This document shows, one piece after another, positions 1 through 5,699 of a stretch of 43,359 nt of DNA. The notes below the pieces were generated by a model. The model had not been told where the DNA came from. It ran no database searches and was given only the letters and a program-made list of their open reading frames with translations. Each line of letters opens with the position of its first letter. The stretch's first letter is position 1. The position numbers were made by a program, and so were the translations under genes. Source of the stretch: a virus (lineage: Duplodnaviria; Heunggongvirae; Uroviricota; Caudoviricetes). The stretch is taken from positions 1 through 43,359 of IMG/VR virus record IMGVR_UViG_2541047745_000011; one strand, 5' to 3'.

Positions 1-1158
1 ATGCTCACCGTTAAGCAGATTGAAGCAGCAAAGCCGAAAGAAAAACCATACCGCCTACTCGATGGTAATGGCCTGTACCTTTATGTCCCTGTGTCAGGGA
101 AAAAGGTATGGCAGCTTCGCTACAAGATTGACGGTAAGGAGAAAATCCTGACCGTAGGAAAATATCCGCTAATGACTTTGCAGGAGGCAAGAGATAAAGC
201 ATGGACCGCGAGGAAAGACATCTCGGTTGGCATCGATCCGGTAAAAGCGAAAAAGGCTTCGTCTAACAACAATTCCTTTAGTGCCATTTACAAGGAATGG
301 TACGAGCACAAGAAGCAAGTCTGGTCAGTAGGCTATGCAACTGAACTTGCCAAAATGTTTGATGACGACATTTTACCCATCATCGGCGGTCTTGAGATTC
401 AGGATATTGAGCCGATGCAACTGCTGGAAGTAATCCGCAGATTTGAAGATCGCGGTGCAATGGAGCGAGCCAACAAAGCCCGCAGAAGATGCGGCGAGGT
501 TTTCCGTTACGCTATTGTCACCGGCAGGGCTAAATATAACCCGGCACCTGACCTTGCTGACGCCATGAAGGGGTACCGCAAGAAGAACTTCCCGTTTCTT
601 CCTGCAGACCAGATCCCGGCATTCAATAAAGCACTGGCAACATTTTCAGGAAGTATCGTATCGCTCATTGCCACCAAGGTTTTACGCTACACTGCCCTAA
701 GAACGAAAGAGCTTCGTTCCATGCTATGGAAGAACGTCGATTTTGAAAACAGAATTATCACCATCGACGCCAATGTGATGAAGGGACGCAAAATTCATGT
801 GGTCCCGATGTCAGACCAGGTGGTTGAACTTCTCACTACGCTAAGCTCAATCACCAAACCAGTATCAGAGTTTGTTTTTGCCGGGCGCAACGATAAGAAG
901 AAGTCAATCTGCGAGAACGCGGTACTGCTTGTGATCAAACAAATCGGCTATGAAGGTCTGGAAAGCGGTCACGGATTCAGGCATGAATTCAGCACGATTA
1001 TGAACGAGCACGAATGGCCTGCTGACGCTATTGAAGTGCAACTGGCACATGCCAACGGCGGATCTGTGCGAGGGATTTACAACCATGCTCAGTATCTCGA
1101 TAAGCGCAGAGAAATGATGCAGTGGTGGGCGGACTGGCTTGATGAAAAGGTGGAGTGA
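1..1158 (+). CDS. int: Tyrosine integrase, P4-like family
   Basis: 385-aa ORF; N-terminus MLTVKQIEAAKPKEKPYRLLDGNGLYLYV is typical of P4-type integrases; C-terminal catalytic region with HGFRH motif. ATG at window position 1. Confidence 0.85.
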   Translation: MLTVKQIEAAKPKEKPYRLLDGNGLYLYVPVSGKKVWQLRYKIDGKEKILTVGKYPLMTLQEARDKAWTARKDISVGIDPVKAKKASSNNNSFSAIYKEWYEHKKQVWSVGYATELAKMFDDDILPIIGGLEIQDIEPMQLLEVIRRFEDRGAMERANKARRRCGEVFRYAIVTGRAKYNPAPDLADAMKGYRKKNFPFLPADQIPAFNKALATFSGSIVSLIATKVLRYTALRTKELRSMLWKNVDFENRIITIDANVMKGRKIHVVPMSDQVVELLTTLSSITKPVSEFVFAGRNDKKKSICENAVLLVIKQIGYEGLESGHGFRHEFSTIMNEHEWPADAIEVQLAHANGGSVRGIYNHAQYLDKRREMMQWWADWLDEKVE

Positions 1159-1294
1159 TCCACCTTAACCACTATCGGATAGTACAAAGCCTTGCAATCC
1201 AGTGCAAAGCTTTGTGTGTTTCAGTTCCCTCACAATCACTATAATGTTCATTACGGTAATCATAAAACTAATGTATAGTTACATATTGTTTTCT

Positions 1295-3415
1295 TCATTT
1301 CACCACCCAACCAGAATTCCAGCGACCTGATTCTTTGATGTAGAGTCTTCCATTTACGATATCTCGATACTCGCTTCCAGGTGTGGCTATTTGTACTCCT
1401 TCAGGATTTCCAGTGCCAGCAATTATACTGTAACTAACGTCTGTGGCTAAATTCCTAACAATGTTAGCAGGAGGGTAAACGTTATCTGCAACAATAATAT
1501 TTGAGCAACTTGCTGTTACATCTACAAAAAACTCATTGCTTATCGAGTTGTGATAACAGTTGTTACTAATCACACCATTTTTAGCAGATGAATCAATACC
1601 TATAACTGCGTCTCCAGCTACAGATTCAAATGAATTTGATGTCACAGTGAATCCGTGGCATTCGCAGTTAATATGGACAGCTCTTCTTCCGTTCATTGCT
1701 GTATTACCTACAATTGATATGTTTCTACTTAACAAAGTTCCTTTGTATTCGCCATCATCCTCAAATATATAGAATATCGCCTTAGCCGTATCAACTTTAT
1801 TGTTGCTTGCAATCACATTAGCAATGTAATTCCCTCTAAGGAATATCCCATTACATGAATCGACTGTGTTTCCAGTGATGGAAACTCCGTCAACCCATCT
1901 CATATCAAGAATGGAGCCATCACAGGACTCAAAATTATTTCCTGATATCCTCCAGTCTCTGTGAAATATTCTACTACCTTCCAATCCGCTCTCAATAAAT
2001 GTTGGTGTAAGGCATGATATCACAGAATTTCCAGTGCAATTTTTAAATGTATTATGATGTATACACACATCTCTTGATGTTTCCCGAAGAGTTGTGCTTA
2101 CTTTCCTCCCGGTAAATATTATTGCTGGATTAGTGAAATTTATAAATGTGTTTGAACCAATGTCAACATTTTCCCACCTAGAAAAGCCACGAATGCCAGA
2201 ATAAGAATTACCATCAAAAGTACAATGGTGGATTTTTATATCAATAACTGGCTGCGCTCCATCTGTTGAACCGTGATTCCCTACGCCAACAGCCCATGAC
2301 GGTAGAGATTCTGACGGTCCAAAATAACAACCAGACACTTTAATGCTAGCGATATTATCATTGCTGGACAATGGTGTTTCAATCTGAATAGCATCTGAAA
2401 AACCTCTGTTACCTGCCCAATCCATAAACCCCATAAAACGGCAGTTTTCAATATTAACATTTCTCACGCGAGACAAGTCTATAGCATGCGCCCCTGAAAC
2501 ATTAAGGAATGTGCAATCCCGAAATATAATCCCATTAGTAAAAACAAATTCAAATATACTGGCTTGGTTTTTGTATATATTGCCATTGTTATTAAAAACA
2601 CCACCAAATACAGATATATTATTACCACATTCGACTTCAGATGTGTATATGCAAGCAAATGTATTTACACCTGTGTCTGAATTATCAAAAGCACGAATAA
2701 TAGTTGCACCTCGTAGATGTAAACTTGTGTTTGAGTATATCATTATTTTTTTTGTTATTTTTATAAGCCATTCACTACGAAAGGTTAAATTCAAACATCC
2801 GTTTATCTTTGCGATATTTAAAGCATTCTGTAAGGCATCGCTATCGTCGCTTACACCATCACCTGTAACCCCAAACCATGACGGTGAAACCTCATTCCCG
2901 TAAACCCTCTTCCACCTTCTACCGTTAAAACCTACAAGAATTGTTCCGTCATTATCTTCTGATGTCGTATCTGTTGGGTCAGCATAGAACACCCCATCAC
3001 CGCCATCGAACAAATTATTTCTTCCATAACAGATTATTTTGTCATTTGTGCCATTATATGAACGTATGTCTGTATAATTACCACCTCCTAAATACGATAC
3101 CCCGTCAATCTGATTTAGTTTCTGCTGAAACATGTCTGGATCATACTTCAGCACATTAGGAAAATAGAATTGCTGCGCTCCATACGCATCATATACAGCC
3201 ATAGAATGGCCTTGCACGGTTACGAATTTGGCAATCTGTCCGTTATATACCGGATATCCAGCAGCGTTAATGATGATTGGTTGCGAAACAGGGATGTGAG
3301 AACCGTCTTCGTTCTCCACATAAACCTGAATCTGGTTTTCAGGATTTACCGGGTCAGTGTCAATTTTACCGATATAAATTTTGCCATTAGCTACGGCTTT
3401 AAAAGAACGCGCCAT
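1295..3415 (-). CDS. Tailspike protein body (706 codons), P22/Sf6-type head-binding N-domain plus beta-helix receptor-binding domain; native first 18 codons separated by IS1
   Basis: N-terminus [40 protein letters not shown] matches residues ~19-60 of P22 gp9 / Sf6 tailspike; remainder is Asn/Ser/Thr-rich, beta-helix-like. Upstream of the ATG is the IS1 end, not a native RBS. Confidence 0.85.
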
Positions 3416-3432
3416 AGGGTAATGACTCCAAC

Positions 3433-3936
3433 TTATTGATAGTGTTTTATGTTCAGATAATGCCCGATGACTTTGTCATGCAGCTCCACCGATTTTGAGA
3501 ACGACAGCGACTTCCGTCCCAGCCGTGCCAGGTGCTGCCTCAGATTCAGGTTATGCCGCTCAATTCGCTGCGTATATCGCTTGCTGATTACGTGCAGCTT
3601 TCCCTTCAGGCGGGATTCATACAGCGGCCAGCCATCCGTCATCCATATCACCACGTCAAAGGGTGACAGCAGGCTCATAAGACGCCCCAGCGTCGCCATA
3701 GTGCGTTCACCGAATACGTGCGCAACAACCGTCTTCCGGAGCCTGTCATACGCGTAAAACAGCCAGCGCTGGCGCGATTTAGCCCCGACGTATCCCCACT
3801 GTTCGTCCATTTCCGCGCAGACGATGACGTCACTGCCCGGCTGTATGCGCGAGGTTACCGACTGCGGCCTGAGTTTTTTAAATGGCGGAAAATCGTGTTG
3901 AGGCCAACGCCCATAATGCGGGCGGTTGCCCGGCAT
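3433..3936 (-). CDS. insB: IS1 transposase InsB reading frame
   Basis: Translation [25 protein letters not shown]...[12 protein letters not shown] matches IS1 InsB. Confidence 0.9.
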
Positions 3937-4130
3937 CCAACGCCATTCATGGCCATATCAATGATTTTCTGGTGCGTACCGGGTTGAGAAGCGGTGTAAG
4001 TGAACTGCAGTTGCCATGTTTTACGGCAGTGAGAGCAGAGATAGCGCTGATGTCCGGCGGTGCTTTTGCCGTTACGCACCACCCCGTCAGTAGCTGAACA
4101 GGAGGGACAGCTGATAGAAACAGAAGCCAC
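3855..4130 (-). CDS. insA: IS1 InsA
   Basis: Translation [42 protein letters not shown]... matches IS1 InsA. Confidence 0.9.
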
Positions 4131-4185
4131 TGGAGCACCTCAAAAACATCATCATACACTAAATCAGTAAGTTGGCAGCATCACC

Positions 4186-4245
4186 CGCCATAGTGAAAAG
4201 TTGCGAAGGCATACTCACTACAACATTGGCTGTAATGTCTGTCAT
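4186..4245 (-). pseudogene. Tailspike 5' fragment (native codons 1-20) cut off by IS1
   Basis: Minus-strand translation from ATG at 4245: MTDITANVVVSMPSQLFTMA, then runs into IS1 and stops after 8 IS-encoded codons; matches P22 gp9 N-terminus MTDITANVVVSNPRPIFTE. In frame with the 1295-3415 body once IS1 and one duplication copy are removed. Confidence 0.85.
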
Positions 4246-4313
4246 TTAATTTGCTCCAGATACAAGGAATCGCCGCAGCATTGCCACAGTGATGCATTAT
4301 TAATCAAACAAAG

Positions 4314-4328
4314 AGACCACTGTGGTCT
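4314..4328. promoter_or_regulatory. Perfect 15-bp palindrome AGACCAC-T-GTGGTCT, candidate Mnt operator overlapping divergent promoters
   Basis: Symmetric site midway between the mnt start (4392, +) and the native tailspike start (4245, -); P22 Mnt binds a palindromic operator in the equivalent position. Confidence 0.4.
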
Positions 4329-4391
4329 TATTGAGGATGCAACCAGCAGATAATAAGATGCCGATCCACTCACAAAAGCGAGGCATCAAGA

Positions 4392-4643
4392 ATGGGAAGA
4401 GATGACCCGCAATTTAATCTGCGGCTACCTTACGAATTAAAGGAAAAACTAAAACAGCGAGCCAAATCCAATGGCCGCTCTCTTAATTCAGAATTAGTTC
4501 AGATAGTGACTGATGCTGTATCAAAGCCATCCAAAATTTCAGGCTATCGAGACGATGCGGAACGCATCGCTGATGAGCAGTCCGAACTTGTTAAGAAGAT
4601 GGTGTTTGATACGCTGAAGGATTTGTACAAAAAACCCACCTGA
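4392..4643 (+). CDS. mnt: Mnt repressor (ribbon-helix-helix, Arc/Mnt family)
   Basis: 83 aa, MGRDDPQFNLRLPYELKEKLKQRAKSNGRSLNSELVQIV...ELVKKMVFDTLKDLYKK closely matches P22 Mnt; GAGG RBS upstream. Confidence 0.9.
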   Translation: MGRDDPQFNLRLPYELKEKLKQRAKSNGRSLNSELVQIVTDAVSKPSKISGYRDDAERIADEQSELVKKMVFDTLKDLYKKPT

Positions 4644-4660
4644 TGGTGGGTTCCATTTAT
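4635..4660. terminator. Bidirectional rho-independent terminator between convergent mnt and lipoprotein genes
   Basis: CCCACC-tgat-GGTGGG hairpin with A-run on one side and T-rich tract on the other; overlaps the mnt stop codon. Confidence 0.5.
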
Positions 4661-5079
4661 TAGTCGTGCTTTGTTGACGGTATAAGGGATGCATTTGCCT
4701 CTTTAGGCTTCAAGGTATACATCCCACCATTAAATGGATCTACAGCAAGCCAACCAATTAACCCACCAAACACAAGGTTTCCACCAATATACCAACCATT
4801 AGCATTGGCTTTGATTGGCAGGGTAACTGGTTCGTACCCATCCTTCTCCATAGTGATCTGGTAGCTCTTTTTGCCAAAATAACTACCATCTGACTTGGCA
4901 AGAGTTACTCCTTGCGGGGTCTTACCTTGCGCAACAATCACGCCTGATTCGTCTTTTACCTTAAAGCTCGCACCGGAAGGATTGCTGTTCACTTGCACAA
5001 GCTGTGTTTCGTCACCAACAATAGTTGCGCACCCAGATAACAATATAGCGCCAGCAACGACGCCGATAATCCTCTTCAT
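4660..5079 (-). CDS. Lipoprotein of unknown function (accessory gene in sieA-equivalent locus)
   Basis: 139 aa; signal peptide with lipobox LLSGC; Gly-rich C-terminal region; sits where P22 carries sieA, between gene 16 and mnt. Confidence 0.6.
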   Translation of the reverse strand: MKRIIGVVAGAILLSGCATIVGDETQLVQVNSNPSGASFKVKDESGVIVAQGKTPQGVTLAKSDGSYFGKKSYQITMEKDGYEPVTLPIKANANGWYIGGNLVFGGLIGWLAVDPFNGGMYTLKPKEANASLIPSTKHD

Positions 5080-5213
5080 ATTACTTTCCGTTTTGTTAGA
5101 ATCAGAAAGATCTTAATAATAAAAAGTATTTTCGTGAAGATATTGTCGATTGAGTTAATAACTCATTTACACCCAACAGTGCCATGATGGCAAAGATAAG
5201 GAGAGTTAATCAT

Positions 5214-5699
5214 ATGAAAAAATCACTGTTAATTATCCCGCTTCTGCTGGCAGGGTGTGCAAAGGTTAGCGACTATCAGGCAAGTTGCGAACAACGCTAT
5301 CCAAAGCTTAGCGATATGGCTAATTGCCTTGATGCTAGCGTGAAGAGCGACTCACGCATGGCATCAGCACCAACACCTAAGTTATATGTCCTTGCTGCGA
5401 AGATGCTCGGGCAAGGTGTCGATGATGGCAAGATAAGTGACGCGCAGGCAAGACTTGAGCTTCAGAATCTTTATGTTCAATTACAAAGCCAAGAACAAGC
5501 CCAACAAATAGCACAAAGCCAAGCATTCCAGCAGGCTTTATTGAATTATCAGGCTGTAAACACAATGCAAGCTATCGAGCAAAAAGCGCGCCAGCCTGTT
5601 ATAACTCAACCTTACCCAACACGCGTTGACACTTACACAAACTGCAATTCAGGGTTTGGAAATACAGTCACATGCAACAGTAGCAGTAACATCAGATAA
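5214..5699 (+). CDS. Lipoprotein of unknown function, Gln-rich (divergent from 4660-5079)
   Basis: Start chosen at ATG 5214 (MKKSLLIIPLLLAGCAK, lipobox LAGC) with AAGGAGAG RBS at 5198-5205; track ORF begins at 5184. Confidence 0.6.
   Translation: MKKSLLIIPLLLAGCAKVSDYQASCEQRYPKLSDMANCLDASVKSDSRMASAPTPKLYVLAAKMLGQGVDDGKISDAQARLELQNLYVQLQSQEQAQQIAQSQAFQQALLNYQAVNTMQAIEQKARQPVITQPYPTRVDTYTNCNSGFGNTVTCNSSSNIR

Follow-up and report, generated by a model that had tools for sequence, protein, structure and literature searches.

The tailspikes of the P22-like phages Sf6 (gp14), P22 (gp9) and HK620 consist of a head-binding domain (PF09008) followed by a right-handed beta-helix and are encoded by the last late gene, which adjoins int in the Sf6-type layout. 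Exchange of the receptor-binding domain on the conserved head-binding domain is textbook knowledge for these phages, the junction directly after the VLKYDPD motif is a well-known recombination site, and O-antigen specificity, as in the tailspikes of P22, Sf6 and HK620, is the default expectation. In Kapi1, an argW prophage of Escherichia coli MP1 in which int adjoins the tailspike gene at one end and xis marks the other, the head domain is conserved and the remainder of the tailspike is unrelated to characterised proteins (bioRxiv 10.1101/2021.04.09.439263). Here we analyze the tailspike gene in a stretch of 43,359 nucleotides, IMG/VR record IMGVR_UViG_2541047745_000011 (hereafter, the window), from the draft assembly GCA_000457405.1; the window comprises a whole prophage of the Sf6/HK620/KplE1/Kapi1 type at argW. 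The reading that we favor, with a probability of about 0.85, is that this is the tailspike gene of an Sf6/HK620/Kapi1-type (P22-like, Lederbergvirus) argW prophage in E. coli that consists of three exchangeable modules and has been inactivated by the insertion sequence IS1. The gene resembles those of Sf6, P22 and HK620 in domain order, position and junction but differs from them in the presence of an extra module, PF27114, between the head domain and the helix, in a much lower guanine-plus-cytosine content (GC) and in the IS1 insertion. Because modular exchange of this kind is textbook, what is gained here is a further example and not a new concept: both the architecture and the mode of exchange are already well known, and it is the specific receptor-binding module that is uncharacterised.

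The tailspike gene lies on the minus strand. Removal of IS1 together with one copy of the target duplication restores an uninterrupted open reading frame (ORF) of 724 amino acids (4245..1295), in agreement with the 724 residues and the coordinate 4245 given in an earlier note on this DNA, which had been made from the letters alone. As the gene stands, the longest ORF encodes 706 amino acids (1295..3415, minus strand), with the ATG start codon located within the duplicated target. The range 1295-3145, to which the earlier note assigned a mosaic tailspike including its head-binding domain, does lie inside the gene and corresponds to residues 109-724 plus the stop codon of the 724-residue protein, but the head-binding codons fall outside it, at 3134-3409 and 4186-4245, with IS1 in between; that a complete IS1 splits the gene at codon 20 had been missed. 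The parts of the gene, in the direction of translation, are:

4186..4245, minus strand: 5' fragment of the tailspike gene, with the start codon at 4245 and codons 1-20 (MTDITANVVVSMPSQLFTMA)
3418..4185, minus strand: complete IS1, 768 bp, recognized by its terminal inverted repeats, insA, insB and Pfam matches
3410..3417, minus strand: second copy of the 8-bp target duplication, the ATG of which starts the residual 706-residue ORF
3134..3409, minus strand: remainder of the head-binding domain, codons 21-112, delineated by PF09008, matches to the Sf6 and P22 structures and nucleotide identity
3101..3133, minus strand: recombination junction, codons about 111-123, where nucleotide similarity ends directly past VLKYDPD
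2870..3121, minus strand: module 2, the small beta domain PF27114 ('Phage_tail_beta'), residues about 117-200, with likeness extending to about 220
1487..2887, minus strand: module 3, an AT-rich right-handed parallel beta-helix, residues about 195-661
2273..2488, minus strand: codons of the candidate sugar-binding or catalytic centre (H328, D331, D359, Q362, E364, H399)
1295..1486, minus strand: C-terminal segment, residues 662-724 plus the stop codon, with a motif conserved in the family (alignments A2 and A3)

The insertion after codon 20 has all the features of a complete IS1: a length of 768 bp (3418-4185; GC 53.5%), both terminal inverted repeats (GGTGATGCTGCC and GGAGTCATTACC), insA (3855-4130) and insB (3433-3936) with Pfam matches to InsA (PF03811, PF12759) and DDE_Tnp_IS1 (PF03400), and a flanking direct duplication of the target, CTATGGCG, at 3410-3417 and 4186-4193, the 8 bp of which agree with the expected 8-9 bp. 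The 5' fragment of the gene reads into IS1 and reaches a stop after 8 further codons, and the N-terminus obtained after removal of IS1 aligns with Sf6 gp14 from residue 1. Given that the IMG/VR locus L018 carries the same int-tailspike end without IS1 (99.6% identical over 5.9 kb), the insertion belongs to this lineage alone, and the otherwise undamaged ORF indicates that it is probably recent. Intact copies of 724 amino acids, at 99% identity, are present in E. coli strains E3 and MS15236; our search turned up no literature on strain MS15236.

The residual ORF lacks 18 N-terminal head-binding residues, its own ribosome-binding site and upstream late transcription, and IS1 insertions are classically polar. 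The insertion cuts the gene off from its start codon, its ribosome-binding site and the transcription of the late operon, so that the tailspike gene is very probably knocked out and the prophage is very probably without functional tailspikes and unable to produce infectious particles; on account of this loss, we infer that the prophage is defective. The IS1 insertion would then illustrate, cleanly and at a recent stage, how a prophage becomes domesticated or decays. The allele in the window differs from those of E3 and MS15236 at 21-22 nucleotides; the changes shared against both comprise 6 non-synonymous and 5 synonymous codons, which are too few to tell whether selection was relaxed after the insertion. 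A scan of 1000-4700 for promoters and terminators yielded no informative site, promoter-like sites being no more common than in shuffled sequences.

The head-binding domain is readily identified. Residues 1-112 match the Pfam family Head_binding (PF09008; E 4.4e-66, 220.6 bits against a cut-off of 24), and the search against the PDB recovered Sf6 gp14 (7sg7; E 2.9e-65 over residues 1-118, with about 92% identity as estimated from the printed alignment) and the P22 tailspike gp9 (E about 1e-50), which bears out the previously proposed P22/Sf6-type match over the first ~110 residues. The nucleotide identity to five other P22-like tailspike genes is 87-100% up to codon 110 and random past codons 111-120 (binned values), and the megablast alignments from E. 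coli genomes stop at query positions 296-309, which convert to codons 116-121 of the gene. The receptor-binding part also differs from that of Kapi1, with nucleotide identity random after codon 120 and a GC of 41.6% in the receptor domain of Kapi1, which is a viable phage, versus 37.6% here. Among 5426 complete E. coli genomes, the 300 nucleotides encoding the head-binding domain are present in 1132, at 90-95% identity, compared with only 2 for the whole tailspike gene. This disparity, along with the occurrence of homologues of the beta-helix on a different anchor (PF18668) and with normal GC, upholds the horizontal exchange that the earlier note had postulated for the receptor-binding module.

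The boundaries of the blastp alignments divide the protein into three modules: the head-binding domain (residues 1 to about 113), common to other P22-like tailspikes; the PF27114 domain (residues about 117-220), common to many tailspikes with other N- and C-terminal parts, at 46-56% identity; and the beta-helix with the C-terminus (residues about 195-724), common to three proteins (P0002-P0004), at 50-55% identity. The description of the protein as a mosaic with an exchanged beta-helix accordingly stands, but with three modules instead of two, the PF27114 segment being shuffled separately. The latter segment also has a PDB match (5w5p, residues 131-220) and forms strands at residues about 144-208 (here and below, in full-length numbering) in an AlphaFold2 model. 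Two of the three proteins that share the third module, P0003 and P0004, are siphophage tailspikes that are alike over residues about 195-724 but carry the PF18668 anchor at the N-terminus and are encoded in contigs of long-tailed phages, with a tape-measure gene, and with a GC of 48.6-49.3%; the contig of P0003 additionally encodes DUF1833 and DNA polymerase A.

The receptor-binding module is rare and uncharacterised. In the collection of phage records, none covers at least 80% of the protein, and the best match to the beta-helix, from Vectrevirus podophages, is 27% identical; the module occurs in only 2 of the 5426 complete E. coli genomes and in no sequenced phage record. An exhaustive HMMER search detected 4935 relatives at E up to 1e-3, among which only one other cluster, defined at 50% identity, is more than 50% identical. 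The cluster of the protein itself has 72 members, carried on over 100 contigs, all named ones listed from E. coli, with the automatic database labels 'phage tailspike protein' or 'bifunctional tail protein'; there is also a match to PHROG phrog_2234 ('tail spike protein'; E 5.5e-172), and no NCBIfam family matched the protein. Two RefSeq proteins, WP_021518010.1 and WP_447584211.1, are 99% identical, and the residual 706-residue ORF corresponds to WP_021527631.1. A single known tailspike highly identical to the protein over its full length, a finding that the earlier note had regarded as contrary to mosaicism, thus exists only in a formal sense, because these proteins are the same uncharacterised mosaic.

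The junction is accompanied by a change in base composition. Codons 113-724 have a GC of 37.6% and a GC at third codon positions (GC3) of 28.9%, compared with a GC of 42.6% in the head-binding part and 47.7% in the rest of the window, and constitute the lowest-GC stretch of 1836 bp in the entire 43 kb; in 1836-bp windows starting beyond 4245, the GC never falls below 41.7% and averages 47.9%, with a standard deviation of 2.9. The composition is thus not uniform across the gene, and the remainder downstream of the head domain is indeed as AT-rich as had been claimed; the run singled out as an example near 2750, TTTTTTTTGTTATTTTTATAAG, was located at 2746, though on the plus strand, antisense to the tailspike gene. 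The richness in Asn, Ser and Thr was likewise recovered: their combined share is 26.6% in the receptor-binding part (N 10.6, S 9.5, T 6.5) versus about 17% in the head domain, and Gly (10.3%) and Ile (9.8%) are abundant as well. A mild AT-richness is general in the receptor domains of P22-like phages, given that five others have a GC of 41.6-44.4% (GC3 of 36-39%); the module analyzed here is 4-7 points lower. The homologues of the beta-helix in P0003 and P0004 show a GC of 48.6% and 49.3%, respectively, and a GC3 of 51-52%, which implies that synonymous sites account for the deficit and that the protein family does not dictate it; residence of the module in a low-GC lineage before it joined the head domain is thereby supported, and a foreign origin of the receptor-binding module is well supported. 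An ORF of 130 codons (2511-2903, plus strand) that lies antisense inside the AT-rich region of the beta-helix is probably spurious.

The AlphaFold2 model of the monomer (predicted local distance difference test score, pLDDT, 77.6; predicted template modelling score 0.76) shows, in this order, the strands of the head domain, a short helix, the small beta domain, a cap helix and a long right-handed beta-helix at residues about 226-661, so that a beta-helix follows the head domain as expected of a P22-like tailspike; the beta-helical receptor-binding domain of the earlier note is therefore recovered, and the profile of the beta-helix family moreover matches PfbA of Streptococcus pneumoniae at E 2e-73. 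The values listed with the model are 34.4 for PfbA, 32.3 for the Klebsiella K1 lyase, 32.3 for the S2-4 depolymerase of phage K64-1, 31.8 for the AlgE4 epimerase, about 30.7 for GH110 alpha-galactosidases and 28.8 for the HK620 tailspike; Foldseek gave a template modelling score of 0.54 to gp49 of Acinetobacter phage APK14. Across 40 aligned homologues, H328, Q362 and H399 never vary, D331 and D/E359 are kept in at least 39, and an acidic residue (D or E) occupies position 364 in 29; these polar residues are spaced by about 31-37 residues, as expected of successive turns of the helix, and align with the conserved putative active centre of PfbA (H293/Q296/Q331/E333/H377), which the authors of the PfbA structure found reminiscent of polysaccharide lyases (PMC3718772). 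The groove of the beta-helix probably binds and cleaves a glycan, as judged from this conservation. The last ~60 residues of the monomer model are of low confidence (pLDDT 34-50); they include a motif, G.PEGV..A..GS.Y.D...G..YIK.SG....GW..K, that is the consensus in alignments A2 and A3, and the C-terminal segment is probably a trimerisation or capping domain.

Taken as a whole, the proposed scenario is that the head-binding domain (residues 1-112) would dock a presumably trimeric tailspike onto the tail hub of the virion, whereas the beta-helix and the short C-terminal domain (residues about 195-724) would initiate adsorption by binding, and probably cleaving, a polysaccharide on the host surface. 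Recombination directly after VLKYDPD joined modules 2 and 3 to the head domain, and module 3 derives from a lineage with a GC much below that of the phage or of E. coli.

Several observations weigh against elements of this scenario. The residual 706-residue ORF keeps an ATG, with GGAG located 10 nucleotides upstream, in the end of IS1, which makes low-level expression of a protein devoid of the 18 N-terminal residues conceivable; a low-GC donor or relative was not found in the one pattern scan, based on alignment A3, of GTDB representative genomes, and the IMG/VR scan yielded only three near-identical copies from E. coli prophages and three weak matches. The low GC might, instead of reflecting a low-GC donor, follow from amino acid composition or local selection: AT-rich codons specify Asn, Ile, Ser and Phe, all of which are abundant in the receptor domain, and every P22-like tailspike gene examined is somewhat below the GC of the phage genome (41-44%). 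The GC3 contrasts described above, namely, 28.9% as opposed to 51-52% in homologues that are 50-55% identical and 36-39% in other P22-like receptor domains, place the deficit mainly at synonymous sites and so weaken this explanation, and the step in composition coincides with the breakpoint of identity; we regard such an origin of the low GC as very unlikely. The PfbA relationship can also be read differently. The closest solved homologue, PfbA (3zpp, 4mr0), is a cell-wall-anchored bacterial adhesin that showed no lyase activity on the substrates tested and has no demonstrated enzymatic activity (PMC3718772), so the beta-helix could be a non-catalytic adhesin, as proposed for PfbA, that binds the glycan without cleaving it. 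PfbA has neither the head-binding nor the PF27114 module. Against a purely adhesive role, the phage family retains the invariant or near-invariant H328, D331, D/E359 and H399, with Asp331 at the position of Gln296 in PfbA. The characterised P22-like tailspikes that bind O-antigen also cleave it, which likewise speaks for catalysis, and we consider a purely adhesive role unlikely.

O-antigen specificity, which the earlier note had assumed, is not established by the carriers of the intact copies: E3 possesses wzx/wzy of the O18 family, a type found in 69 of the 5426 genomes (cluster at L008, positions 1783824-1794047 of the record NZ_CM130010.1), and MS15236 possesses wzx/wzy of the O6 family (cluster at L010, positions 2150289-2152271 of the record NZ_CP082094.1). 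Because these two lysogens differ, the serotype of the lysogen does not identify the receptor, and the O-type was dropped as a guide to it. In the O6 cluster of MS15236, an IS1B copy has a short glycosyltransferase ORF on one side and a hypothetical ORF on the other, which together look like a split glycosyltransferase gene. The receptor could be a different surface glycan, for instance a capsular K antigen or an exopolysaccharide such as colanic acid, in the manner of the CUS-3-type P22-like prophages, the tailspike of which we take to be a capsule-specific endosialidase. Apart from the unrelated O-antigen clusters in the two hosts, this is compatible with a match of residues 1-659 to phrog_8280, labeled 'colanic acid degradation activity' (E 1.6e-111), and with the 981-residue tailspike that the P22-like prophages of UTI89-type strains carry on the same head domain and that is presumably the CUS-3 endosialidase. 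The phrog_8280 label is automatic, though, and the match owes much to the head domain; characterised P22-like tailspikes (P22, Sf6, HK620) are specific for O-antigens; and the O-type of a lysogen can shift after lysogeny, the O6 cluster of MS15236 being itself disrupted by IS1. A receptor other than the O-antigen therefore appears possible but on balance doubtful. A more specific proposal, that the tailspike is a still-catalytic, phage-borne PfbA-like beta-helix that recognizes not a serogroup-specific O-antigen but a glycan that E. coli of types O18 and O6 have in common, seems quite improbable; to our knowledge, the PfbA-like beta-helix family is 'non-classified' in CAZy, with no activity known, and, were the proposal true, the IS1-free allele would give this family an activity and the P22-like coliphages a new receptor. 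Under the favored interpretation of the gene as an IS1-inactivated tailspike, the IS1-free allele could serve as a depolymerase or a typing reagent and as a handle on the PfbA-like family; its practical value would be modest.

The surroundings of the gene agree with its assignment. The prophage has intS (1-1158) at one end, adjoining the tailspike gene, with mlaA and yfdC beyond int, and torI/xis at the other end, adjoining a host gene for a major facilitator superfamily transporter. Upstream of the tailspike gene are a homologue of P22 gp16 (PF26808) and a neighboring injectosome translocase gene (PF16928), with mnt adjacent and intS downstream, which puts the tailspike gene at the end of the late/injection block, as in a P22-like prophage and with the same layout as in Sf6 and Kapi1. 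The adjacency of int and the tailspike gene was considered as a sign of rearrangement or of tandem elements, and this was rejected because it is the normal Sf6/HK620/KplE1-type layout, with attP between int and xis. The tRNA scan of the window detected no genes, so the argW attachment site lies outside it. Only 136 bp (1159-1294), which contain neither oac nor gtr, separate the stop codons of the tailspike gene and int, in contrast to Sf6, where oac is located between the two genes.

The tailspike gene, along with about 45 nucleotides upstream and about 200-220 nucleotides downstream, is 98% identical in the prophages of E3 and MS15236, which are integrated at other sites (dacD and torT) and have different neighboring genes. 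The likeness extends 197-220 nucleotides beyond the stop codon of the tailspike gene and so reaches into the 3' end of intS of the window (1075-1294; L001, 8124-8320; L002, 8124-8343), which suggests that the cassette in E3 and MS15236 may have been carried over from an argW-type phage together with a remnant of int. In MS15236, a partial ORF of 84 nucleotides is annotated in the stretch that resembles the 3' end of intS.

Several other genes of the prophage deserve mention. An Mnt-type repressor gene (Arc and Repressor_Mnt domains; 4392-4643, plus strand) is divergent from the tailspike gene and is not followed by arc or ant, in contrast to the immI regions that precede this tailspike gene in E3 and MS15236. 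Two small ORFs between the gp16-like injection gene and mnt (4660-5079, minus strand, and 5184-5699, plus strand) encode lipoprotein-like signals (…LLSGCAT… and …LLAGCAK…, respectively), have no Pfam match and may be moron or superinfection-exclusion genes. A second insertion sequence, of the IS21/IS100 type (23569-25370), with istA (340 amino acids, rve domain) and istB (260 amino acids, IstB_IS21), is bordered on one side by an HNH/AP2 endonuclease gene, itself flanking the lysis genes, and on the other by the early region; the related prophage of MS15236 also bears a copy of IS100, beside an antirepressor gene.
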